Origin: Salinivirgaceae bacterium
GTDB taxonomy: Bacteria; Bacteroidota; Bacteroidia; Bacteroidales; SZUA-534
Direction of reading: 5' to 3'
Assembly (NCBI GenBank): GCA_024405635.1
Contig: JAKSOL010000010.1
Span: 2,128-66,127 of the forward strand
Length of the DNA: 64,000 nucleotides
Positions 1 to 19,337 of this stretch are shown piece by piece; positions within the stretch are counted from its first letter, which is position 1, and every line of letters begins with the position of its first letter. Position numbers and translations under genes: made by a program. The notes under the pieces are model-generated. The model saw nothing but the letters and a program-made list of their open reading frames with translations. It was not told where the DNA came from and did no database searches.

Positions 1-347
1 GACGCACAATATTTACACATTGCATTTACTACAATGTTGACGAAAGCAAGCTAACAGCAAAAGCACAAGCCGAGCTTGAAGAAGTTATTAAGTTCCTAAT
101 GGACAATCCAAACATTGGAGCCGAAATAAACGGTTATGCCGACCAAACAGGCGGCAGCGAGCACAACATTGATTTGTCGCAACAACGAGCACAAAACGTT
201 ACAAAACACTTGCTAAACAACGGAGTGGACCGACGGAAACTGATAACAAACGGGCACGGAACGTCGCTACGAAACGGCAAAACCGAAAACGGAGCAGTAA
301 ACTACCGTCGAGTTGAAATAATTTTGTTTGAACTTAAAAACAAGTAA
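1..347 (+). CDS. OmpA-family peptidoglycan-binding domain protein (C-terminal part; 5' end lies outside the window)
   Basis: Frame 3 is open from the window edge (..NVDESKLTAKAQAELEEVIKFL..) to the stop at 345-347. It carries the OmpA C-terminal-like signature NGYADQTGGSEHNIDLSQQRAQNV...YRRVEI. Confidence 0.85.
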   Translation, partial: RTIFTHCIYYNVDESKLTAKAQAELEEVIKFLMDNPNIGAEINGYADQTGGSEHNIDLSQQRAQNVTKHLLNNGVDRRKLITNGHGTSLRNGKTENGAVNYRRVEIILFELKNK

Positions 348-351
348 AGCC

Positions 352-897
352 ATGACAACAAAAAGAACCATATTGATGTCGGCATTGCTTTGCTTGCTGA
401 CACTAACAACAAAAGCCCAATATGCCGAGTACGAAATAAAGGCTGCATACATTTTCAACTTTGCAAAATTTATAGAGTGGCCCGAAACCGAAACCACGCC
501 CTCCGACTCTATCTATTTATGCATTTACCAAAAAGACCCATTTGGTGTTATTTTGGAAAAAACCATGGTTGGACGCACAGCCAACGGCAAAAGTTGGAGC
601 ATAAAACGTATAAATAGTTTGAAAGAAGTTACCAAATGCCACATCTTGGTAATACCAGACATAAGCCAACACAATGTAACTAAACTACTTAAAGAAATTG
701 GCAACAAACCAATACTAACCATTGGCGACGAAATACCAAACTTTTGCAATTTGGGTGGTATAGTAAACTTTACGCCTCAAATGTCAAAGTGTCAGTTTGA
801 AATGAACAACGATGTTGCTTGCGGCAACCGTATTCGCATAAATCCAAAATTGTTGCAATTGGCAAAAATCATATCAAATAAAGAAGATGAATTTTAA
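352..897 (+). CDS. YfiR-like periplasmic protein (DUF4154 family)
   Basis: An ATG at 352 lies 4 nt after the upstream stop. There is a signal peptide (MTTKRTILMSALLCLLTLTTKAQ) and the DUF4154/YfiR hallmark IKAAYIFNFAKFIEWPE. The 328 start in the ORF track is a TTG that overlaps the upstream gene. Confidence 0.75.
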   Translation: MTTKRTILMSALLCLLTLTTKAQYAEYEIKAAYIFNFAKFIEWPETETTPSDSIYLCIYQKDPFGVILEKTMVGRTANGKSWSIKRINSLKEVTKCHILVIPDISQHNVTKLLKEIGNKPILTIGDEIPNFCNLGGIVNFTPQMSKCQFEMNNDVACGNRIRINPKLLQLAKIISNKEDEF

Positions 898-3148
898 AGA
901 CATATCCATTAGGTCAAAGATCTCAATCTTAGTGGTGGGTATATGCTTAGCCACGCTGATTGTGTCTAGTTTATTGTTTTTTGTATTCGATAGCCGTCAA
1001 TACAAAAAAATGATACTTGAAAAAGTAACCATCACAGCCGATGTAATTGGAGGCAACAACACAGCCAACATCATTTTCAACAACCCACAAGAGGCCGCAA
1101 CAGTACTACGTACACTAATTGCCGACGATGGCATAAACGTAGCTCGCATATACGACAACGACGACAATATTTTTGCCGAATACATAAAAGAACCTGAGTA
1201 TGCAATGTCAAACCTCGATTTCATCACAAGCAACGCATCTCATAAATATGTAAAACGAACATTACTTGTAAAACGCCCTATTATTCTTGACAACGAGAAA
1301 ATTGGCGCAACATTTTTGAATTACAGCATGGAAGGATACTATGCCCGACGCATAAGTTTCATTCACTTTTTGTTAGGACTATTTACTGCTGCACTTATAA
1401 TTGTTTTGTTGCTAACTGTTAAACTTCAACGCATCATTTCAACCCCCATTATTAACTTGACAAACACGATGCGTAGCATTGAAAAAAACCTTGACTACAT
1501 TACAGTTGACGACAAAAGAAAAGACGAAATAGGCCAGTTAATAAATGGTTTTAACTCCATGATTACACAAATCAAGCAACAAAACCAAGATTTGGTACTG
1601 GCCAAAAACCAAGCAGAAAATTCTGCCAAAATTAAAGACCAATTTCTTGCCAACATGAGCCACGAAATTCGAACACCAATGAACGGTGTTATTGGTATGG
1701 CTAAATTGCTTGAAAACACTCCACTTTCAGCCGAACAAAAATGCTTTTTAGACAACATTTCAATATCGGCAAGCAACCTGCTAGTTATTATCAACGACAT
1801 TTTGGACTTCTCAAAAATTGAGGCAGGCAAAATGGAACTTGAAGAGATTGAATTTAATTTGAGCAACATAATTGACACATTAAATGTAGTTTACACCAAA
1901 ACAACCGCCGACAAACGCTTGTACTTTAAACTAAACATTGACGACAATGTGCCCAAAATGCTATGGGGCGACCCTACTCGACTAACACAAATACTGAACA
2001 ATTTGATTGGCAATGCCGTAAAATTCACCGAGTATGGAGGCATTACGCTCACCATAAAATCGCGTGAAATGTCGCACAACTTCACACATTTAAAGTTTAT
2101 TGTTTCAGACACTGGCATTGGCATCCCACAAGAAAAACAAGACCTTATATTCAAAAGTTTTTCGCAAGCAAGCAGCGACACGACGCGCAAATATGGAGGC
2201 ACAGGACTTGGACTTACCATATCGCGTCAACTGGCTTTAATGCACAAAGATGGAAACCTAACAGTTAGTAGCCAAATTGACAAAGGCAGTACATTTTGTT
2301 TCGATGTAACCTACAAACAAAGCAACGCCACCCCAGAACCTATTGTTAAGACTACTGAAAGACCAAAACCTATTGAAGGAAAAAACAGGGTTAAAGTACT
2401 ACTAGCCGAAGACAATGAGATAAACCAATTGTTTGTTAAAACAATTCTAAAACCATACTTTGATGTTTACTCGGCCGAAAATGGCAAAATTGTGGTTGAT
2501 TGGCTACGAAAAGAAGATTTTGACATTATTCTGATGGACTTGCACATGCCCGAAATGGACGGCTACCAAGCAACATCTGAAATACGAAAAATGGATGACG
2601 AACGAATAAACAACATTCCAATTATTGCATTAACAGCAGCTGCTATTAAAGGCGAACGCGAAAAATGCATCGACTCGGGAATGAACGACTACATTTCAAA
2701 ACCATTTAACCCCGATGAACTTATCGACAAGATTTTTAGTTTGGTAACGCCATCCGAAAACATTGCTAACAAGCCTGAAGAAAGCCCAAAAAGCAAAATC
2801 AAACCTACTGAATTCAAATACATAAACACCAAATACCTTGATTCAATAACCGACGGCGACGAAAACTTTCAACACCAACTAGTATCGATTTTTATTGATC
2901 AAGTGCCTGAACTTAAAAACAATATGCTTGAAGCATTTGAGTCGCACAACTACCATCGCCTATCAGAAGTTGCTCACAAGGCAAAATCTTCAGTTGCAAT
3001 GATGGGAATGAGCCAGTTACGCGAACACCTTGCTCGACTTGAGCAAAGTGCTAAAGAAGGCATTGAGGCTGAAACCTACAAAGAAAAAATTGACCTATTT
3101 ATTGTTACTTGCGAGGCCGCTATCGAAGAATGTAAAAACCTACTATAA
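887..3148 (+). CDS. Hybrid sensor histidine kinase (2 TM, periplasmic loop, HAMP, HisKA, HATPase, REC, Hpt)
   Basis: It overlaps the upstream stop by 11 nt. Two hydrophobic helices flank a roughly 120-aa loop. Motifs seen: H-box FLANMSHEIRTPMNGV, N-box NLIGNAVKFT, G-boxes DTGIGI and GGTGLGL, receiver VLLAEDNEINQ...ILMDLHMPEMDG...ISKPF, and a C-terminal Hpt motif AHKAKSSVAMMG. Confidence 0.92.
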   Translation: MNFKDISIRSKISILVVGICLATLIVSSLLFFVFDSRQYKKMILEKVTITADVIGGNNTANIIFNNPQEAATVLRTLIADDGINVARIYDNDDNIFAEYIKEPEYAMSNLDFITSNASHKYVKRTLLVKRPIILDNEKIGATFLNYSMEGYYARRISFIHFLLGLFTAALIIVLLLTVKLQRIISTPIINLTNTMRSIEKNLDYITVDDKRKDEIGQLINGFNSMITQIKQQNQDLVLAKNQAENSAKIKDQFLANMSHEIRTPMNGVIGMAKLLENTPLSAEQKCFLDNISISASNLLVIINDILDFSKIEAGKMELEEIEFNLSNIIDTLNVVYTKTTADKRLYFKLNIDDNVPKMLWGDPTRLTQILNNLIGNAVKFTEYGGITLTIKSREMSHNFTHLKFIVSDTGIGIPQEKQDLIFKSFSQASSDTTRKYGGTGLGLTISRQLALMHKDGNLTVSSQIDKGSTFCFDVTYKQSNATPEPIVKTTERPKPIEGKNRVKVLLAEDNEINQLFVKTILKPYFDVYSAENGKIVVDWLRKEDFDIILMDLHMPEMDGYQATSEIRKMDDERINNIPIIALTAAAIKGEREKCIDSGMNDYISKPFNPDELIDKIFSLVTPSENIANKPEESPKSKIKPTEFKYINTKYLDSITDGDENFQHQLVSIFIDQVPELKNNMLEAFESHNYHRLSEVAHKAKSSVAMMGMSQLREHLARLEQSAKEGIEAETYKEKIDLFIVTCEAAIEECKNLL

Positions 3149-3149
3149 T

Positions 3150-3491
3150 ATGATTATCAACAACGACATTACTGGTTGCGCCATTGTTTCACCAAACTTT
3201 AACAATCGCCGCATTACTGTTAGCAACGCTGAAGAGTTTAAAAAAGAATTATTTAAAGTACTTGACAACAACTACTTAAACTTAATTCTTAACCTAAAAG
3301 ACATCGACATTATTGATAGCACAGGTCTTGGCGTTATAATTACAAGTTACAACCGCGCACAAAACCGCAACTGCAAATTCAAACTTTGCAATTTAAGCAA
3401 CGCTGTTGCCAACTTGCTACACATGACTAAACTTGACCAAGCTCTTGACATTTATTCTTCAGTTGACGAGGCAGTTGCATCAATCAAATAA
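3150..3491 (+). CDS. STAS-domain protein (anti-sigma factor antagonist family)
   Basis: An ATG at 3150 lies 1 nt after the kinase stop. The SpoIIAA/RsbV-like motif IDIIDSTGLGVII retains the phosphorylatable Ser (Ser57, codon 3318-3320). The longer 3030 start overlaps the Hpt coding region. Confidence 0.85.
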   Translation: MIINNDITGCAIVSPNFNNRRITVSNAEEFKKELFKVLDNNYLNLILNLKDIDIIDSTGLGVIITSYNRAQNRNCKFKLCNLSNAVANLLHMTKLDQALDIYSSVDEAVASIK

Positions 3492-4927
3492 TGGAAACAA
3501 CAAAACTCAACGAGTCGATTTGGCATCAACTGTATGCGCAACAAACCGGCAACGAACCTATAAACATTGAAAAGCTACCTCGTTCTGGATCCGACCGCCA
3601 ATATGCTCGACTCACTAATGAAACTGGCGAAACTCTTTTGGCCGCTTTCAATCCTAATGTTGACGAAAACGAAGCCTATTTTGCATTTTCAGAACACTTT
3701 TCAAGATTTAACATTAACGTACCCAAAGTGTTGGCAATTGGCTCCGACAGGCAACACTATTTAGTTGAAGACATTGGCCGCGACTCGCTTTATGACCACA
3801 TAACACTCGCCAAAGGTGAGTTTAACAACCAACTCAACCAACTATACTGCAAAGCACTAACTGACCTTGTTCAAATGCAAGTTGTAGCAGGAAAAACAAT
3901 TGACTACACCAAATGCTTTCCAACCGACAAATTTGACCAAACCGCCATTGGTTGGGACCTTAACTACTTTAAATACTGCTACTTAAAGTTAGCTCACGTT
4001 GATTTTGACGAAGTTAAACTTGAACAAGATTTTGATGCTATAAAACAAGCCATTGCCAATATTGATTGTTCTGCATTTATGTTCCGCGATTTTCAGTCAC
4101 GAAACATTCTTCTGAAAAACAACACCCCATATTACATCGATTTTCAAGGAGGACGCCGCGGCCCACTTACTTACGATGTTGCATCGCTACTCTATCAAGC
4201 CAAGGCGCAATTGAGCGAAGATGTTCGCAACAAACTGTTTGACCATTACGCAACAGAATTGTCAAAAGTGAAAGCAATTGACAAAGCAAAACTATTTGGC
4301 GAGTTTAAACTATTTGCATTGCTACGAACTTTGCAAGTGCTTGGAGCTTATGGATATAGAGGATATTTTGAGCAAAAAACACACTTTATTTCAAGCATAC
4401 CATTTGCAATTGAAAACCTAAAAACACTATTGCAACAAAATTTGCCCATTGATTTGCCTTACATTAAACACATTGCTAATCAGTTAAATACGTCCAAAAC
4501 CATTTCAACCAAAGCCGACCGACTAACCGTTAAAGTGTTTAGTTTTTCATACAAACGAGGCATACCATTTGACGAATCTGGCAATGGCGGGGGATTTGTA
4601 TTCGATTGCCGTGGGCAACATAATCCAGGCCGATTCCCCGAATACAAAAACGTTACTGGTCGCGACCAAATGATTAAAGACTTTTTCAAACAAAACCCAG
4701 GCATCGACCAATTCCTTGATGATGCTACACGCACAGTTTCTCCTACCATTGAAACATATATGCGTCGCGGATTTGCTAGTCTAATGGTAAGTTTTGGTTG
4801 CACAGGTGGGCAACACCGTTCAGTTTATTGTGCACAAGGTTTTGCCGAACGTATAAGCAAACTATTTGATATTGATGTTGAACTTTGCCATCGCGAACAA
4901 AACATAACCGAAAAATTTAGCAGATAA
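3491..4927 (+). CDS. Fusion protein: AmgK-like (APH-fold) sugar kinase N-terminal domain plus RapZ C-terminal-like domain
   Basis: The start overlaps the STAS stop by 1 nt. The N-terminal domain has GSDRQYARL, FRDFQSRNILL and YIDFQGGRRGPLTYDVASLL, which are protein-kinase-like/APH motifs as in anomeric MurNAc/GlcNAc kinases. The C-terminal part (aa 343-478, nt 4517-4924) has LTVKVFSFSYKRGIPFD, FDCRGQHNPG, VTGRD and GCTGGQHRSVY. These align motif by motif with the E. coli RapZ C-terminal domain. Confidence 0.8.
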   Translation: METTKLNESIWHQLYAQQTGNEPINIEKLPRSGSDRQYARLTNETGETLLAAFNPNVDENEAYFAFSEHFSRFNINVPKVLAIGSDRQHYLVEDIGRDSLYDHITLAKGEFNNQLNQLYCKALTDLVQMQVVAGKTIDYTKCFPTDKFDQTAIGWDLNYFKYCYLKLAHVDFDEVKLEQDFDAIKQAIANIDCSAFMFRDFQSRNILLKNNTPYYIDFQGGRRGPLTYDVASLLYQAKAQLSEDVRNKLFDHYATELSKVKAIDKAKLFGEFKLFALLRTLQVLGAYGYRGYFEQKTHFISSIPFAIENLKTLLQQNLPIDLPYIKHIANQLNTSKTISTKADRLTVKVFSFSYKRGIPFDESGNGGGFVFDCRGQHNPGRFPEYKNVTGRDQMIKDFFKQNPGIDQFLDDATRTVSPTIETYMRRGFASLMVSFGCTGGQHRSVYCAQGFAERISKLFDIDVELCHREQNITEKFSR

Positions 4928-5647
4928 ATGGAAGCAATGCTATTTGCCGCTGGACTTGGCTCACGACTCCGCCCCCTGACAAACGACCGCCCCAAAGCCT
5001 TAGTTAAAGTTGCTGGTCGCACGCTACTTGAACACAATATTGCGGCACTTGAAAATGCTGGCGCAACTCACATTGTGATTAACGTGCACCACTTTGCCGA
5101 CATGATGAAACAAACTATAAGCAACATTAACTGCAAAGCAAAACTCACCATTTCCGACGAAAGCGAAATGCTACTTGACACAGGTGGAGGCATAAAACAC
5201 GCATCGCAATACTTTACAAGCAATAAACCTATTGTGGTTGCAAATGTTGACATTCTATCAAACATCAACCTACAAAAAATGTATGCGCAACACACTGAAA
5301 ACAAGACCATTGCAACTCTTGCCGTGCGCAATCGTAATAGTTCTAGAATGTTGCTTTTCAACTCAAACAACGAACTGAAAGGTTGGCAAAACAATAAAAC
5401 TGGCGAAGTGAAATATACAAGCAACGACCGAGACCTTAAACAATTAGCATTCAGTGGAATACACATAATTTCACCCGAAATTTTCAATTATTTCCCTACC
5501 GAAAACATATTTTCGATAATTGACTTTTATCTAAAATTAGCACAAACTGAGCGCATTGTTGGATACCAACACCAACAAGATTATTGGTTTGATGCTGGAT
5601 CGCCAGCAAAAATTGAAGAAGCCGAAAAATTTCTACTCACTTTATAA
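4928..5647 (+). CDS. Sugar-1-phosphate nucleotidyltransferase (MurU-like)
   Basis: The ATG immediately follows the upstream stop (taaatg). The N-terminal signature is MLFAAGLGSRLRPLTNDRPKALVKVAGRTLLEH. The size (239 aa) and the position next to an APH-fold kinase mirror the AmgK-MurU pairing. Confidence 0.75.
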   Translation: MEAMLFAAGLGSRLRPLTNDRPKALVKVAGRTLLEHNIAALENAGATHIVINVHHFADMMKQTISNINCKAKLTISDESEMLLDTGGGIKHASQYFTSNKPIVVANVDILSNINLQKMYAQHTENKTIATLAVRNRNSSRMLLFNSNNELKGWQNNKTGEVKYTSNDRDLKQLAFSGIHIISPEIFNYFPTENIFSIIDFYLKLAQTERIVGYQHQQDYWFDAGSPAKIEEAEKFLLTL

Positions 5648-5662
5648 CCACACAACTATCAA

Positions 5663-6382
5663 ATGATAAAAACTGCAAAAGAGCAATTTTTGCAAAAACA
5701 TAACTACCAGTCACTCAACATAAAAGCTGCGCTATTTGACATGGACGGAGTACTATTTAATAGTATGCCGTTACATGCCAAAGCATGGGTTGAAGCCTTG
5801 CGCAAACTTGGAATTAACTTTTCCGAATATGAAGTATATCTGAACGAAGGAAGAACAGGCTTTTCAACAATCGATGAGCAATTTTTAAAACAATTTGGCC
5901 GACATAGTACCGAACAAGAACAACGCGAAATATATGCTCAAAAAAGTGCCATTTTCAAATCGATGCCAAAACCTGCTCCTATTACAGGAACTTTGGATAT
6001 TGTTAAATACTTAGCCAACAACAAAATAGCCCGATTAGTAGTAACCGGGTCGGGAGAAGAAACAACACTAAACCGAGTTGCCGAACACTACCCTAACCTA
6101 TTTGACCGTAAACAAATGGTTACCGCACACGATGTTAAACTAGGCAAACCACACCCCGAGCCTTATTTAATGGGACTTAGCAAAGCGCAAGTTGCTGCAA
6201 ACGAAGCAATTGTAATTGAAAATGCTCCTCTCGGCATTAGAGCTGGTGTAGCTGCTGGCATTTTCACCATCGGAATAAACACTGGCATATTAAAACGCGA
6301 GGACCTTATAAATGCTGGCGCTGATTTGGTGTTTGACAATATGCACGAATTCTTACTATCTATTGAAGAAATAATACACTAA
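5663..6382 (+). CDS. HAD-IA hydrolase, beta-phosphoglucomutase-like (sugar-phosphate phosphatase or pyrophosphatase candidate)
   Basis: Motif I is FDMDGVLFNS, motif II is VVTGSG, and the motif III Lys is in GKPHPEPYL. Motif IV reads VIENAPLG, with E-N (6218-6223) rather than the usual E-D. Confidence 0.8.
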   Translation: MIKTAKEQFLQKHNYQSLNIKAALFDMDGVLFNSMPLHAKAWVEALRKLGINFSEYEVYLNEGRTGFSTIDEQFLKQFGRHSTEQEQREIYAQKSAIFKSMPKPAPITGTLDIVKYLANNKIARLVVTGSGEETTLNRVAEHYPNLFDRKQMVTAHDVKLGKPHPEPYLMGLSKAQVAANEAIVIENAPLGIRAGVAAGIFTIGINTGILKREDLINAGADLVFDNMHEFLLSIEEIIH

Positions 6383-6400
6383 TAATCAAACAAATACACA

Positions 6401-6949
6401 ATGAAAAAAGTTTACATTTTTCTAGCCGAAGGTTTTGAAACAATTGAGGCTCTGGCTCCTGTTGATGTGCTTCGACGCGGAGGGATTGACGTTGTAACAG
6501 TATCGATAACCGACAGCGAAACTGTTGCTTCATCGCACAAAGTATTGGTTAAAGCAGACACCACTTTTGCTAAAGCCAACCTAAGTGATGGCGATGCCAT
6601 TATTCTTCCTGGTGGTTTTCCTGGTTATGCCAACTTGGGAAAATCGGCCGAGGTTGGACAAACTATAAAGAATTACTACAACAGCGGCAAATTAGTTGCT
6701 GCCATTTGCGGCGCCCCTACAGTATTGAAAATAAACGAAATAGGTGAAGGTAAACTTATAACCTGCCATAGTTCGGTTGTTGCCGATATGGTAAACTACA
6801 ACTACACTGGTACAGCAACCGCTACCGATGGTAACCTTATTACTGCTGATGGTGCTGGGCATTCAATTGTTTTTGGTTGCGAAATATTACGCTATCTAAC
6901 CAACGACGAAACTGTTACTTCTGTTAGAGGCAAAATGGAGTTGAAATAA
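6401..6949 (+). CDS. DJ-1/PfpI family protein
   Basis: A 182-aa protein with the nucleophile-elbow AAICGAP and IILPGG, which is typical DJ-1/ThiJ-like architecture. Confidence 0.85.
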   Translation: MKKVYIFLAEGFETIEALAPVDVLRRGGIDVVTVSITDSETVASSHKVLVKADTTFAKANLSDGDAIILPGGFPGYANLGKSAEVGQTIKNYYNSGKLVAAICGAPTVLKINEIGEGKLITCHSSVVADMVNYNYTGTATATDGNLITADGAGHSIVFGCEILRYLTNDETVTSVRGKMELK

Positions 6950-7023: not shown

Positions 7024-9078
7024 TTAATTCTCAGGATATGTTGCAACCTTTTTAATCGAATAATCTTTAGCGTAGTTAATTATATAAATAGCCGTATTTT
7101 GATAACCTCCCTGATCGGTTGTTGGCATAAAGTTTAGCGATGTTTGCAACAATGGTACTTTATGGAACATTATTGCACGACGAAAATCTCTACCATATTT
7201 ATTCAATGCCGAACAGAAATATGTTGTTATATCGTAAGCCTGAAAAGCGGTTTTGCTAGGTTCAATTTTAAACATATTTCGGAACTGACTTACAAACTCA
7301 ATTATCTGTGGTTCAGAATAGTTTATATATGAATTTGACAGAAAATGCATGTTTGTATTAAACAAGTTATCAATGTCAATACTCTCAAACATTTCCCATC
7401 GGCTTTGACCAAACACCGTAATGTCGTACTCGTATGAGTAACCGTTTATCTTTCCAATCACGTCGGTTACAAACGAACGGTCGGTTGATGGAATAATAAC
7501 AATATTCTCTCTTCCTTTTACAAACGCACTATTGAGCAAATCTCCATTTGCATTAAAATAGTAATACTCATGATAACGAACTTGGTCAAGGTTATCGCTA
7601 CTAATAGTTGAATAAAGCTGACGTTTAAATTCTGAAATGTAATCTTGCTCTTGACTATTTCCGTTATGAATAACTATGTAGTTTTTAGAATCGACTTGTG
7701 TTAAAAATTCTGCCACATACTTCATTTGAATATCAAACGATGGGCTTACCTGAAAAGCATACGGGTTATGTGTAATAAAATCGTTTTTAACCGACAATGG
7801 CGACACAATGTTTATTTGATGCTCCCAAGCATAATCGCCAACTACCGATAGTTCGCCACTAAATGCTGGACCAATAAACAAATCGAAGTTTGATAAATCG
7901 GTGGTTTTCAAATAGTTTGCAATATATGTACTATCGCCACGAGTATCAATTATTTTAACATTGAACGACATTCCTTTGCTCTTTAAATCTTGCAAAGCCA
8001 ACATTGCTCCAATGTAGAAATCAACAAACATTTTTGATTTGCCATATATCTTTCCAGTGCCGTCGCCCCAACCCGCTGTATCGCTCATATTTAGATACAA
8101 TGGCAAGAAGAAAGCTACATTGTACGATTTTTCGGTATCAATTTGAGCATTCATAAATTCAACCATCTCTTGCTTGTTAGCCGAGTAGTCGTTTATGCGA
8201 AGTTGCTCTTGTTCTTTTTGCTTAATCGCCGAACTATCAACCTTTGCAACCAACTCTGTTTCAGACATTACCATTGAGCTTCCCTTTGGTATGCGTATTA
8301 TTTCACCTTCTTGCAATCCTCGTTTTTTCAAATCGGGATTAAGTTTCAAAATCTGCTTATCGGATATATTGTATTTGCGGGCTATACCATACAAAGTTTC
8401 TTGTTTGGCAACTTTATGCCAATCGCATTCTTCCTCAGCAACAGCAGCAACTGCCTCTTTTGCAGGTATTTTAAGCGATTCGCCTATTTGTATTGAACGT
8501 GTTTTTATTTCTTGATTCAAAGCCTCAATTTCTTCAACCGAAACATGATACTGACGCGATATGCCAAACAGAGTTTCTTGTTTCTTAACTACGTGCAGAA
8601 TAAAAGAATTATCGTCAATAGCAGGTTCTTCAAACTCGGTATTTTGTTCGGTTTTATTGGCCACTTCTTGTGCACGAAAACGTAAACGGTCGCCTATGCG
8701 AATACCAAGTTCAGTTCCTGGGTTAAGTTCATACAATTCTGAAACCGTACAACCATAGCGCTTTGATAGGTTGTATGGTGTATCGCCTTTTTCTACTTTG
8801 TGGTAAATGTAGGTTGAGTTAACTACAGGCTCTTGCTTAACTCTAACTTTAATGTATTGGTTGGGATGAATAACGTATGCTGCTTGTGGGTTATCGGCAA
8901 TAAGAGTATCAACTGGCACCTCGTACTGGCGACTTATGGCGCTCAATGTTTCTCCTTGTCGAATAATGTGCATATAATATTCGCGACCGTTGAGCAACAC
9001 TTTATTATTTTGAGCATTTACGGCTGCGGCTAATAAAAGTCCTATTGATAGTATCCAAAAACGTTTCATATTGTGCAT
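7024..9078 (-). CDS. Secreted protein with four LysM repeats and a C-terminal type-I periplasmic-binding-protein-like domain
   Basis: There is a signal peptide (MKRFWILSIGLLLAAAVNAQ) and four LysM-like repeats (..GETLSAISRQYEV.., ..GDTPYNLSKRYGC.., ..QETLFGISRQYHV.., ..QETLYGIARKYNI..). A roughly 380-aa C-terminal domain follows. An alternative ATG start lies at 9069. Confidence 0.8.
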   Translation of the reverse strand: MHNMKRFWILSIGLLLAAAVNAQNNKVLLNGREYYMHIIRQGETLSAISRQYEVPVDTLIADNPQAAYVIHPNQYIKVRVKQEPVVNSTYIYHKVEKGDTPYNLSKRYGCTVSELYELNPGTELGIRIGDRLRFRAQEVANKTEQNTEFEEPAIDDNSFILHVVKKQETLFGISRQYHVSVEEIEALNQEIKTRSIQIGESLKIPAKEAVAAVAEEECDWHKVAKQETLYGIARKYNISDKQILKLNPDLKKRGLQEGEIIRIPKGSSMVMSETELVAKVDSSAIKQKEQEQLRINDYSANKQEMVEFMNAQIDTEKSYNVAFFLPLYLNMSDTAGWGDGTGKIYGKSKMFVDFYIGAMLALQDLKSKGMSFNVKIIDTRGDSTYIANYLKTTDLSNFDLFIGPAFSGELSVVGDYAWEHQINIVSPLSVKNDFITHNPYAFQVSPSFDIQMKYVAEFLTQVDSKNYIVIHNGNSQEQDYISEFKRQLYSTISSDNLDQVRYHEYYYFNANGDLLNSAFVKGRENIVIIPSTDRSFVTDVIGKINGYSYEYDITVFGQSRWEMFESIDIDNLFNTNMHFLSNSYINYSEPQIIEFVSQFRNMFKIEPSKTAFQAYDITTYFCSALNKYGRDFRRAIMFHKVPLLQTSLNFMPTTDQGGYQNTAIYIINYAKDYSIKKVATYPEN

Positions 9079-16670: not shown

Positions 16671-19337
16671 CTATTGAATCTCAAAACCGACTACCGAAAT
16701 ATCGTCAACTTGAGGGTTTGAACCACGCCACTCGTTGAATTTTTCCTCAAGAATAATCATTTGTTCTTCTTTTGGTTTGTTAACACATTGGCGCAAAACC
16801 TCTTTAAATCCCAAACTCTTCATTTTCACATTGTCGTTGCCACCAAACTGATCGTAATATCCGTCAGAGAACATATAAATTTGGTCGCCCGACATTAACT
16901 GAACTTTGGTTTGTGAGAACGAACGATCCTCGTTATCATAAAAACCAACTGGCATACGGTCTGGTTTTAGTTCAATAATACCACCTTCGCGGAAAATATA
17001 AATTGGGTTCATTGCTCCTGCAAAGACAAGTATTTTGTTTTCGCGATCGATTGACACAATTGACATATCCATGCCATCGCCAGCCGACGAATTGTTGTTG
17101 TTTTGATGCAGATATCGAATAACATCAATACGCAATCGATTAAGAATAGCTGCAGGTTGTACAATTCCAAGTTCTTCAACAATTTTACTCATCAGCAACA
17201 TTCCCACAAGACTCAAGAATGCACCAGGAACACCATGACCAGTTGAATCGGCACAAGCCACAATGGTACGCCCGTGTTTTTCGCCTATCCAATAAAAATC
17301 GCCACTAACAATATTACGTGGACGATAGTACGCAAAACTGTTTGGATATATTTTCGACAATGTCTCAAAAGGAGGCATTATGGTGTTTTGTATGCGGCAA
17401 GCATATTGAATACTAGCATTAATATCAATATTGGCAGCAGTTAACTCATCTTGAGTCTTTTTAAGTTTAGTAATGTTTGTTTCAATTGAAATAATGCTTT
17501 TAACATGGTTTTCTCCATCTGATGATAACAAAGGAGTTAGTGTTTGGTGTACCCAAAGTTGATCGCCCCATTTAGTAGTTATTCCAATCTCTTTTTCAAT
17601 CGATTCTTTAGTTTCTTGATTCTTCCAAATGCTAATAGCCTCGGCAACATCAACGCCGCCAAGCAGCGACGAATCCATCAACAAATCGTCTAAACTATAG
17701 CCATACATGTGCGAAAAGCCTTCGTTTATCCAAGTCAGATTTCCTTCATTGTCTAGCACTCTAATAGCATTATCGGTTTCGCAAGCAATAAGCGACAACT
17801 TTTCAAGTTCAAGATTTGTATCTTGCAAATGCTTACGCTGAGCCTCAATTTCTTCTTTTTGCTGCGATATTTTGAATGTTTTCTCTTGCAACTCAGCGTT
17901 TGCCTTACCTTTTTGCACCAACAACCTTATTAGAATCAGTGTTAGAATAATAGCCAACGCTATTAAGCAAGTAGCATAAGTAATAATATGGTATTGACGA
18001 CCTATAAGGCTTTGTTTCTTTTGGTTGTCAGATACAGTTTCTTGGTTTTGTCGCAACAACATTTCTTTTTGTTGGGTAAGACGCAGCAATTCTGCGTTTT
18101 GTAGCAATTCCATTTCTTGTTCTGACAATGAGGACAATACACTATCAGCATAAAGTATTGAGTTGCGATAATACTCGTTTGCCAAGCCTGTACGATTGGT
18201 CTTTGTGCTTATATCGCCAAGTATTTGACAAATTGCTTTAATGTCGGGCCAGTACTTTAACTGTTCAGCATAACTGAATGCGTTTTTGGCATAGTGCTCA
18301 GCTCCCATCAAGTTGCCGTTTAGCATATACAGTTCGGCCATAAACTTGTACACATAATAGTGCAACGACAAATCTTCTGATGAATTACACAGGGTTTCTG
18401 CTTTTGTTGCGTACTCTATTGAAGTGTTTAGCAAGTTTTGATAATAATACCACGTTGCCAAATCGAGGTTAGCTTTAATTTTTGGCAAAATAGCATCAGT
18501 ACGTTCACTCATTGTGCGAGAACGGTTAAAATCGTCAAGCGACACTTTTATTTCTCCATTTTCCCACTCAATGAATCCTATTATACTATATGCCATCACT
18601 TGGCCTGTTGGATTATTGATGGCATTAAATGTTGACAAAGCATCTTTTGCATACTCCATTGCTCCTTTTGAATCGAAACGTGCCCCACGTATTTTGGCAA
18701 TCATAAGCAATGCTTGACCATAATTACAATTTGCAGGGTCGCCTTGTGCTATTTCTTGCGCTGCTTGTGCATAAGCAAGTGCTTTGGGCATGTCGTTGCT
18801 TGAATAATAGTACTGAGCTTGCAATTCATCAAACTCAACTACAAGGGCACTATTTGACGATTCGGAAATATAATGTTGAGCTGAATCGAGATAACTGCGT
18901 GTTGTTTTTTGGTTTAGCAAAGCTTGCTCACAAGTAGCAAGTAAATAATATATTGACAACCAATAATCGTTAGAATTAGCGCCACCATTGACTTCCAATT
19001 TGGCACGAGCCTTTTTTACATATTTAATACACTCGCTTATTTGACCTAGTTGATAGCTCAAATAACCAGCATGAATATTCAATGAAATTTGAACGTTGGG
19101 TGTTGTGTCGGCTAAAAGTACTTGATTGTAAATACCGAGCGCCATTTTTAGCGAATTGCTTTTTTCATACACACTAGCCTCATTAAGCAAACTTTGGGCT
19201 TCATTGCTACTAACTGATAGTTGTCGCAAAGGCCTATCTTTTGCCTTACCTATTCGCTTATCGGACTCGGCACTAACTTGCGAAATTGCCGACAACGCAA
19301 AAAGCATTGAGACTATAAGAAAAAATAAGCGCTTCAT
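16671..19337 (-). CDS. TPR-repeat, transmembrane, PAS-domain, PP2C/SpoIIE-type serine phosphatase
   Basis: The order is a signal peptide, about 430 aa of TPR-like repeats, one TM helix (ITYATCLIALAIILTLILIRLLV), a coiled coil, a PAS-like region, and a C-terminal PP2C domain (SGDFYW, ADSTGHGVPGA, MFSDGYYDQ, DDISVVGF). Confidence 0.88.
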   Translation of the reverse strand: MKRLFFLIVSMLFALSAISQVSAESDKRIGKAKDRPLRQLSVSSNEAQSLLNEASVYEKSNSLKMALGIYNQVLLADTTPNVQISLNIHAGYLSYQLGQISECIKYVKKARAKLEVNGGANSNDYWLSIYYLLATCEQALLNQKTTRSYLDSAQHYISESSNSALVVEFDELQAQYYYSSNDMPKALAYAQAAQEIAQGDPANCNYGQALLMIAKIRGARFDSKGAMEYAKDALSTFNAINNPTGQVMAYSIIGFIEWENGEIKVSLDDFNRSRTMSERTDAILPKIKANLDLATWYYYQNLLNTSIEYATKAETLCNSSEDLSLHYYVYKFMAELYMLNGNLMGAEHYAKNAFSYAEQLKYWPDIKAICQILGDISTKTNRTGLANEYYRNSILYADSVLSSLSEQEMELLQNAELLRLTQQKEMLLRQNQETVSDNQKKQSLIGRQYHIITYATCLIALAIILTLILIRLLVQKGKANAELQEKTFKISQQKEEIEAQRKHLQDTNLELEKLSLIACETDNAIRVLDNEGNLTWINEGFSHMYGYSLDDLLMDSSLLGGVDVAEAISIWKNQETKESIEKEIGITTKWGDQLWVHQTLTPLLSSDGENHVKSIISIETNITKLKKTQDELTAANIDINASIQYACRIQNTIMPPFETLSKIYPNSFAYYRPRNIVSGDFYWIGEKHGRTIVACADSTGHGVPGAFLSLVGMLLMSKIVEELGIVQPAAILNRLRIDVIRYLHQNNNNSSAGDGMDMSIVSIDRENKILVFAGAMNPIYIFREGGIIELKPDRMPVGFYDNEDRSFSQTKVQLMSGDQIYMFSDGYYDQFGGNDNVKMKSLGFKEVLRQCVNKPKEEQMIILEEKFNEWRGSNPQVDDISVVGFEIQ

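Follow-up and report, generated by a model that had tools for sequence, protein, structure and literature searches.

What does RapZ's C-terminal domain do when it is carried by a sugar kinase? This question is raised by one gene of a 64,000-nucleotide stretch of DNA from a Salinivirgaceae bacterium (assembly GCA_024405635.1, contig JAKSOL010000010.1), a stretch that we call the window in its full length. RapZ and YvcJ proteins are widespread, a function is established for them only within the enterobacterial GlmY/GlmZ circuit, and the essential cysteine in the pocket of their C-domain is puzzling, no chemistry having been assigned to this pocket. A reading of the window made from the sequence alone (the sequence-only reading) had proposed that the gene encodes an AmgK-like kinase of the APH fold with the C-terminal domain of a RapZ protein attached. 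Our computational analysis confirmed that the gene joins an AmgK-like salvage kinase to a RapZ C-terminal domain, hereafter RapZ_C.

The fusion gene and its kinase domain

The gene is a single frame of 478 codons, ATG-initiated, on the strand and at the coordinates that had been proposed, and its ATG overlaps the stop codon of the upstream STAS gene (TAATG). The features of the gene and of its 478-amino-acid (aa) product are as follows, where pLDDT is the predicted local distance difference test score.

3491..4927, forward strand: AmgK-like kinase and RapZ C-terminal domain fusion; 478-aa open reading frame (ORF), ATG start
3491..4483, forward strand: residues 1-331, APH/protein-kinase-like small-molecule kinase domain (Pfam, NCBIfam, Foldseek)
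4085..4141, forward strand: kinase catalytic core, with the catalytic loop R199-D200-F-Q-S-R-N205 and the metal-binding Asp of I216-D217-F-Q; invariant in 61 homologues
4484..4522, forward strand: residues 332-344, inter-domain linker; pLDDT about 68 (residues 331-340); natural gene fissions fall here
4523..4924, forward strand: residues 345-478, RapZ C-terminal domain (PF22740) without the basic RNA-binding tail (Pfam, PDB, model)
4577..4594, forward strand: Gly-rich stretch S363-G368 (S-G-N-G-G-G), from the E. coli alignment and the 61-sequence alignment
4601..4612, forward strand: F371-D372-C373-R374, equivalent to E. coli F181/D182/V183/R184
4799..4822, forward strand: phosphate-binding loop C437-T-G-G-Q-H-R443-S444 (C-x5-R-S); invariant except Q441

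All motifs named in the sequence-only reading were found in the translation. Those of the kinase are SGSDRQYARL (residues 32-40), FRDFQSRN (198-205), and IDFQGGRRGPLTYDVASLL (216-234), and those of the RapZ-type part are LTVKVFSFSYKRGIPFD, FDCRGQHNP, VTGRD, and GCTGGQHRSVY. Profile searches returned both PF01636 and PF22740 above their cut-offs, and the RapZ C-domain match was significant.

The assignment of the N-terminal part to an AmgK-like kinase of the APH fold held in family, sequence, and structure comparisons. Pfam APH (PF01636) matched residues 29-260 with an E-value of 1.6e-11 and 44.8 bits (cut-off 23.2). A sequence search of the PDB with the N-terminal part found the APH protein 3CSV (1.7e-13), and Foldseek with the kinase model placed the same entry first (E 3e-14), ahead of further small-molecule kinases with the APH fold. 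The best NCBIfam matches of the whole protein were RapZ and two AmgK equivalogs, all three under cut-off; the AmgK models, which were the best kinase models, gave 66.8 bits against a cut-off of 550 (NF045759) and 57.2 against 500 (NF045698). The AmgK-family signature S34-x-R36-x-Y38-x-R40 is present in the kinase domain and invariant in the 61 homologues, and the alignment shows D200, N205, and D217 unchanged across the same set. With these three residues and the S-x-R-x-Y-x-R motif invariant, the kinase looks active. Its sugar specificity would be for MurNAc (N-acetylmuramic acid) or GlcNAc (N-acetylglucosamine), judging from homology and synteny. The fusion protein would behave functionally like AmgK, yet it scores outside the curated AmgK equivalog families.

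The RapZ-type domain

Residues 346-470 matched Pfam PF22740 ('PapZ_C', the RapZ C-terminal domain) with an E-value of 1.2e-30 and 106.7 bits (cut-off 27), whereas the NCBIfam RapZ model aligned only at its positions 149-277 of 278, with 98.1 bits against a cut-off of 244. A PDB sequence search with the C-terminal part found E. coli RapZ (5O5O/5O5Q/5O5S, about 1e-11), and the profile of the C-domain family matched RapZ at 2e-23. The full-length AlphaFold2 model, built on 61 homologues, reached a pLDDT of 93.9 and a predicted template-modelling (TM) score of 0.77, and it shows two domains that are each well folded, with a linker of lower confidence between them at about residues 331-345. When the C-domain was modelled separately (pLDDT 92.4), it superposed on the crystal structure of the RapZ C-terminal domain, 5O5S, with a TM-score of 0.92, a root-mean-square deviation of 1.7 A, and 30% identity; in the Foldseek search of this model against the PDB, RapZ entries alone appeared at E<=0.001. 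The proposed RapZ C-domain is thus supported by both the family match and the superposed fold.

The sequence-only reading had also stated that the P-loop domain of RapZ is replaced by an unrelated kinase fold, and this was borne out. Residues 1-331 have the APH fold, and no P-loop domain (PF03668) was present in the fusion protein or in any Bacteroidia-type C-domain protein inspected. With the P-loop N-domain absent and the RapZ equivalog cut-off unmet, the fusion protein is not a RapZ. Among the best Bacteroidia-type matches, we considered candidates of 270-306 aa for the canonical combination of P-loop and C-terminal domain and rejected them as N-truncated APH fusions or chimeric fragments; none of them had a P-loop, and they carried parts of HSP70, glycosyltransferase, or GH92 proteins instead.

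Residue conservation was read from the alignment to E. coli RapZ and from the 61-sequence alignment, whose overall identity is about 45%. In E. coli, the pocket of the C-terminal domain binds sulfate or malonate and has been proposed as a metabolite site (PMC5737377), and the isolated domain binds glucosamine-6-phosphate (GlcN6P) with a KD of about 10 nM, its pocket being conserved in diverse bacteria, far outside the range of GlmY/GlmZ (PMC7073468). A crystal of the domain grown with GlcN6P contained 'likely a chemically transformed product' (PMC9841335). The fusion protein keeps four of the five pocket residues: T248, G249, H252, and R253 of E. coli correspond to T438, G439, H442, and R443, which are invariant (61/61), as is C437, the equivalent of C247. 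The fifth, H190, is replaced by an invariant Gly (G380) with R/K next to it, and the position of K251 is occupied by Gln (Q441). The C-x5-R-S pattern occurs in 98.7% of the 149 best family representatives, and in the model the phosphate loop sits between a beta-strand and the start of a helix.

The domain has further features of its own. C373, which is Val (V183) in E. coli, is a second invariant cysteine. S363-G367 form a five-residue insertion relative to E. coli RapZ, G368 aligns with D178, and G366-G368 are invariant. The many invariant polar residues include D361, D372, R374, N378, R426, H442, and H467, and N365, D392, and E469 are nearly invariant. Mutation of F181/D182 abolishes dimerisation of the E. 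coli domain (PMC5737377); the corresponding pair F371/D372 is invariant (61/61), and from these residues we predict that the fusion protein dimerises. At the C-terminus, the protein ends ...LCHREQNITEKFSR, and the net charge of its final 25 residues is about -1; the mean over the 61 homologues is +0.8, and the basic, Lys/Arg-rich tail of enterobacterial RapZ is missing from the family. Of the residues along the RNA path in E. coli RapZ, K194, K251, and R238 have become E or variable, Q, and G, respectively, while K355 (K170) and R374 (R184) are kept. Taken together, the domain is a genuine RapZ C-domain whose pocket has been remodelled.

Distribution and reality of the fusion

A protein database search returned at least 8000 scored candidates, and the best 120 matches listed were all 465-521 aa long with both domains. 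They came from Bacteroidales, Salinivirgaceae, Muribaculaceae, Paludibacter, and Marinimicrobia, and the only names they bear in the databases are 'RapZ C-terminal domain-containing protein' and 'phosphotransferase'. When one genome per species was scanned, a relative turned up in at least 582 species, and our neighbourhood and ORF counts refer to the best 80 of these species-representative loci. The best 80 belong to Bacteroidaceae, Prevotellaceae, Muribaculaceae, Tannerellaceae, Rikenellaceae, Paludibacteraceae, and Dysgonomonadaceae, and also take in Marinilabiliales (Draconibacterium, Prolixibacteraceae, Saccharicrinis), Calditrichia, and Marinimicrobia. In this survey of how common the fusion is, one uninterrupted ORF spanned both domains in 78 of the 80 loci. 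The Tannerellaceae loci (L062, L072, L078, L085) have the fused gene beside a MurU-like gene.

That the fusion could be an assembly, frameshift, or gene-calling artefact is refuted and keeps practically no probability: some relatives do encode the two domains as separate genes, but against an artefact stand the single ORF in nearly all species genomes, the two-domain length of all of the best 120 matches, an identical protein in an independent JGI record (P0001), the homogeneous composition along the gene, and the split forms themselves, which have their own start codons and coupled-type overlaps in 16-23 contigs from different projects.

Horizontal acquisition was also rejected, the GC content being uniform (0.37-0.41) around the gene. 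As a separate observation, a metagenome-assembled genome labelled 'Streptococcaceae bacterium' (L081, CAVDAU010000023.1) contains a typical Bacteroidales-type kinase-RapZ_C gene with a MurU-like gene; this case is probably bin contamination rather than transfer.

RapZ_C as a third module beside kinase and uridylyltransferase

Immediately downstream of the fusion gene lies a gene that supports the amino-sugar salvage context proposed earlier.

4928-5647, forward strand: MurU-like sugar-1-phosphate uridylyltransferase, 239 aa; its ATG is the next base after the kinase stop, in the same frame

The best NCBIfam models for this nucleotidyltransferase are those of MurU, although under cut-off (141.9 bits against 370 and 136.7 against 250), and its PDB matches over the full length are the MurU structures 4Y7T (1.9e-18) and 8HHD (6.6e-16). 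A MurU-like gene stands beside the kinase gene in 58 of the 80 loci by tblastn, with gaps of -3 to about 520 nucleotides, and in 54 of the 80 by clustering. It is the only strongly conserved neighbour, the next commonest neighbour family being found in 9/80.

We searched a C-domain profile against 1.84 billion representative proteins and obtained 5232 relatives, 380 of them at E<=1e-30, a number that we take as an estimate of the size of the Bacteroidia-type clade. A search for homologues of the 140-aa C-domain gave proteins of 131-244 aa and missed its own 478-aa parent; it was length-biased, and no stand-alone fraction is drawn from it. From the best 150 of the 5232 relatives, we read the following arrangements by Pfam scans and contig look-ups.

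(i) Kinase-RapZ_C followed by the MurU-like gene: seen in the window and in most genomes
(ii) Three overlapping genes for kinase (345 aa), RapZ_C (138 aa), and MurU-like protein (240 aa): seen in 23 contigs of the JGI and Logan data (P0239)
(iii) Kinase (336 aa) and RapZ_C (133 aa) without an adjacent nucleotidyltransferase, beside ddl and a class-IV aminotransferase gene: 16 contigs (P0221)
(iv) Kinase (335 aa) and a RapZ_C-nucleotidyltransferase fusion (387 aa): three samples (P0254)
(v) Kinase-RapZ_C-nucleotidyltransferase as a single protein of 714-768 aa: at least eight clusters at 50% identity

The clusters of the triple fusion are P0268, P0277, P0313, P0320, P0331, P0341, P0363, and P0380, and P0277 was found on five contigs. 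In the window, the kinase stop TAA (4925-4927) is followed directly by the in-frame ATG of the MurU-like gene (window 4925-4930). Because the two genes abut in frame, a single stop-to-sense change would create the triple fusion (v).

Where the RapZ_C gene is split off, it begins at the linker, before the first strand (M-K-D-K-LTVTINSFS and M-Q-Q-K-LKVRVYSFS), and it overlaps the upstream gene by 11 nucleotides in one case and 1 nucleotide in the other, in a different frame. These splits are clean, independent fission/fusion events and not sequencing errors. Separate genes in close relatives had been named beforehand as a sign of an artefact. Such genes do exist in a minority of lineages, but the inference drawn from them fails; clean, coupled fissions in 16-23 contigs reinforce a functional link between the domains rather than an artefact.

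In the loci with split kinase and RapZ_C and no nucleotidyltransferase gene (L004-L006), the neighbours are divergent genes for a D-Ala-D-Ala ligase and a class-IV (D-amino-acid-type) aminotransferase, which is another cell-wall precursor context. Odd architectures were also seen among the C-domain relatives (P0250, P0326 (L092), P0247, P0260, P0261). They include a 3'-5' exonuclease-APH-RapZ_C protein (718 aa), HEAT repeats joined to RapZ_C and followed by a nucleotidyltransferase gene (single contig), and short proteins in which glycosyltransferase, HSP70, or GH92 fragments are joined to RapZ_C. Most of these odd forms are probably chimeric or miscalled.

The idea that RapZ_C is a portable module is strongly supported, since the domain occurs on its own, joined to the kinase or to the uridylyltransferase, and as part of the triple fusion. 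Of the two ligands suggested for it, an amino-sugar phosphate is a candidate, and RNA is unlikely, because the basic tail and several RNA-path residues are missing. RapZ_C is an autonomous third component of the kinase/uridylyltransferase unit.

Genomic neighbourhood

The kinase gene lies within a tightly packed run of genes on the same strand. Besides the MurU-like gene, the run includes the following.

328-897, forward strand: YfiR-like (periplasmic) protein
887-3148, forward strand: hybrid histidine kinase with CHASE8, HAMP, receiver, and Hpt domains
3150-3491, forward strand: STAS-domain (anti-sigma-factor-antagonist-like) protein; overlaps the kinase ATG, translationally coupled
5663-6382, forward strand: HAD-family BT2127-type inorganic pyrophosphatase (NCBIfam, PDB)
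6401-6949, forward strand: DJ-1 family protein

The HAD protein matched NF053653 (BT2127-type pyrophosphatase) with 294.2 bits, over the cut-off of 245, and the PDB entry 3QU2 and related ones at 1.6e-64. We rejected it as a candidate for MupP, whose model gave 31.6 bits against a cut-off of 359, whereas the BT2127 pyrophosphatase model passes. It was also rejected as a conserved partner, because a relative was found near the kinase gene in 4/80 loci by tblastn and the best clustered family of that size in 5/80. A pyrophosphatase is a logical companion of a uridylyltransferase that releases pyrophosphate. The STAS gene is directly upstream in the closest relative as well (L007, 60% identity) and in 0/79 of the other loci. 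The STAS, histidine-kinase, and pyrophosphatase neighbours are lineage-specific, and we regard the STAS gene as context, which does not imply membership in the module.

Two other proteins of the window were noted. An 888-aa protein (16671-19337, reverse strand) has a C-terminal part that resembles a SiaA-type PP2C phosphatase (171 bits, below cut-off); this protein is a candidate partner-switching phosphatase that may act on the STAS protein. A 684-aa protein (7024-9078, reverse strand) has a signal-peptide-like N-terminus, several LysM-like repeats, and weak matches to murein hydrolase and amidase-activator families; it is predicted to be a peptidoglycan-binding protein and is encoded convergently with the salvage operon.

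Comparison with known systems

The AmgK pathway is said to go back to Gisin et al. in 2013. AmgK of Pseudomonas putida/aeruginosa, Legionella, and Caulobacter shares with the fusion protein the APH fold with its catalytic D...N...D, the N-terminal S-x-R-x-Y-x-R motif (also in 3CSV), and the pairing with MurU. On the other hand, AmgK of proteobacteria stands alone and has a mass of about 38-39 kDa (PMC11957156), the fusion protein adds a RapZ-type domain of about 135 aa, and its score lies far under the AmgK equivalog (66.8 against 550 bits). The AmgK/MurU route is established in Pseudomonas, Legionella, and Caulobacter (PMC10941766, PMC11957156) and has been assigned to Bacteroides by homology (PMC8054146). 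Tannerella forsythia, which is without MurA/MurB, uses this route (PMC7670621).

With RapZ, YvcJ (Bacillus), HpaP (Xanthomonas), and Rv1421 (M. tuberculosis), the fusion protein shares the C-terminal domain's fold, four of the five pocket residues, the loop Cys, and the F-D pair, as well as a tie to amino-sugar and cell-envelope precursor metabolism. It differs in having an APH kinase where RapZ has its P-loop N-domain, in the changes of H190 to Gly and V183 to Cys, in the Gly-rich insertion, and in the lack of a basic tail. It is also encoded with MurU, unlike RapZ; homologues of RapZ lie in neighbourhoods of the rpoN/ptsN or glmR/whiA type. The N-domain of the mycobacterial RapZ homologue is reported to bind UDP and UDP-GlcNAc (PMC11229554).

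The MupP-AmgK-MurU system of Pseudomonas uses the same kinase and uridylyltransferase to bypass MurA/MurB, and the likeness would extend to all three steps if the RapZ-type domain were a phosphatase. MupP, however, is a HAD phosphatase encoded elsewhere, whereas here the HAD protein of the operon is a BT2127 pyrophosphatase and the candidate third component has another fold.

Bacteroides Fkp is an L-fucokinase/GDP-fucose pyrophosphorylase, and GlmU is another bifunctional sugar enzyme. The relatives of 714-768 aa resemble them in placing the kinase and the nucleotidyltransferase for one sugar in one polypeptide; they differ in that the kinase is of the APH and not the GHMP type, and that the intervening RapZ-type domain has no counterpart.

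Finally, the pocket loop shares with PTP/DUSP, LMW-PTP/ArsC, and Cdc25/rhodanese proteins the C-x-x-G-x-x-R-S pattern, the strand-helix position, and oxyanion binding. No relation in fold or sequence to PTP-type phosphatases was detectable, and catalysis by the domain is putative. Homology of the C-x5-R-S loop to PTP, LMW-PTP, or rhodanese proteins was rejected, since Foldseek and a PDB profile search (up to E 10) gave RapZ alone; the likeness is at the level of the loop.

Proposed role of the RapZ-type domain

On homology and synteny, the kinase would convert a sugar and ATP to the sugar-alpha-1-phosphate, and the MurU-like uridylyltransferase would convert the sugar-1-phosphate and UTP to the UDP-sugar and pyrophosphate. 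In the window, the BT2127-type pyrophosphatase would split pyrophosphate into two phosphates and pull the second reaction. The sugar would be MurNAc or GlcNAc, and the gene would be the Bacteroidia-type version of the AmgK salvage kinase. The C-domain would dimerise the enzyme and bind a phosphorylated amino sugar in its C-x5-R-S pocket, the ligand candidates being GlcN6P, GlcNAc-6-phosphate, MurNAc-6-phosphate, the sugar-1-phosphate, or the UDP-sugar. Occupancy of the pocket would gate or couple the flux from the kinase to the uridylyltransferase, and such gating would correspond, in cis, to the way in which enterobacterial RapZ senses GlcN6P to tune de novo amino-sugar synthesis.

Ligand-gated control or coupling of MurNAc/GlcNAc salvage is the role that we tentatively prefer, by analogy with enterobacterial RapZ. 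It extends the only biochemical property demonstrated for the domain. The altered pocket, with H190 replaced by Gly, V183 by Cys, and an added N-G-G-G loop, suggests a ligand other than that of E. coli RapZ. Several points weigh against gating. The sensing function is extrapolated from one enterobacterial protein that is about 30% identical, and H190, which is essential in E. coli, is here an invariant Gly, so GlcN6P may not be the ligand. The very high invariance of polar residues, the two cysteines, and the fusions in all permutations fit a pathway enzyme at least as well as a sensor domain. Moreover, the kinase and the uridylyltransferase lie far under the AmgK and MurU equivalog cut-offs, so we infer their specificity. 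In favour of the salvage role, the AmgK/MurU orthologues of T. forsythia, whose kinase may be of the fused type, support MurNAc incorporation in E. coli (PMC10941766).

A serious rival, although on balance a somewhat unlikely one, is that the domain is a Cys-dependent sugar-phosphate phosphatase or phosphotransferase acting through C437-x5-R443-S444. For example, it could convert MurNAc-6-phosphate or GlcNAc-6-phosphate to the free sugar for the C1 kinase, as an equivalent of MupP in a three- or four-enzyme line. The loop fits the C-x-x-G-x-x-R-S signature at a strand-to-helix position in nearly all of the 149 representatives, the second invariant cysteine C373 and the many invariant polar residues fit as well, and being joined in all permutations to two successive enzymes of one pathway is the classic mark of a further enzyme of that pathway. 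A PTP-like loop in RapZ was noted by Khan & Goerke (PMC7199280), and phosphatase besides nucleoside triphosphatase activity has been reported for YvcJ and Xanthomonas HpaP (PMC7525490, PMC9742497). However, these activities were not assigned to the C-terminal domain, the papers that we read report no sugar-phosphate turnover by the RapZ C-terminal domain, and only RapZ was significant in Foldseek and sequence-profile searches, with no PTP, LMW-PTP/ArsC, or rhodanese relative. Considering the pathway, no such step is required between AmgK and MurU, a 6-phosphatase together with a MurNAc 6-kinase in one cell could make a futile cycle, and T. forsythia is reported to be without AnmK, one source of MurNAc-6-phosphate (PMC7670621). 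A bolder extension, which we regard as rather unlikely, is that the RapZ C-domain is an ancient Cys-dependent amino-sugar-phosphate enzyme, for example a MurNAc-6-phosphate/GlcNAc-6-phosphate phosphatase or phosphotransferase, which in Bacteroidia would make up a salvage line of three enzymes with AmgK and MurU and replace MupP without being homologous to it. In this case, canonical RapZ and YvcJ would be cryptic enzymes, and the RNA-adaptor role would be a late add-on.

It is distinctly unlikely that the domain is mainly architectural, that is, a dimerisation or docking platform that joins the kinase and the uridylyltransferase so that the sugar-1-phosphate passes between them unreleased (channelling), its phosphate held in the pocket. 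RapZ_C does lie between the kinase and the nucleotidyltransferase in the gene order and in every fusion, RapZ_C-nucleotidyltransferase fusions with a separate kinase exist, the dimer-interface residues F371/D372 are invariant, and the C-terminal domain is the oligomerisation hub of RapZ (PMC5737377). Nevertheless, stand-alone AmgK and MurU of proteobacteria function in the absence of such a domain (PMC11957156), the adjacent nucleotidyltransferase gene is missing from about a quarter of the genomes, and E. coli RapZ did not respond to GlcN-1-phosphate (PMC7073468). A platform by itself would leave the invariant cysteine, and the invariance of the whole pocket, unexplained.

RNA binding as in enterobacterial RapZ, giving a post-transcriptional link, is highly improbable: the pocket does touch the RNA backbone in the cryo-electron microscopy structure of the E. 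coli RapZ:GlmZ complex (PMC9841335), and K355 and R374 are retained, but the basic tail, which is restricted to Enterobacteriaceae (PMC7073468, PMC7525490), is absent here, K194, K251, and R238 are replaced, and no Rfam match was found anywhere in the 64-kb window.

Significance

The kinase-RapZ_C architecture is abundant and automatically annotated in databases, and our search turned up neither a curated family model for it nor, among the searchable papers, any that discusses it; none of these papers treats AmgK and RapZ together, or PF22740 or a RapZ-like C-domain. The permutations of fusion and fission with MurU, taken as a set, appear unreported. The fusion makes the question of sensor versus enzyme experimentally simple, as it ties the RapZ C-domain to a two-enzyme amino-sugar pathway in another phylum. 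With RapZ_C attached to the two enzymes of a defined pathway, from MurNAc/GlcNAc through the sugar-1-phosphate to the UDP-sugar, the candidate ligands are narrowed to a few amino-sugar phosphates, and a new route to the original role of the RapZ domain is provided.

The AmgK/MurU route bypasses MurA, the target of fosfomycin, and T. forsythia, a MurNAc auxotroph, relies on it for UDP-MurNAc. The enzymes of the route also serve as tools for metabolic labelling of peptidoglycan. If in Bacteroidia an overlooked third module governs the route or supplies it, then fosfomycin bypass, the UDP-MurNAc supply of T. forsythia, and peptidoglycan labelling would all be affected.

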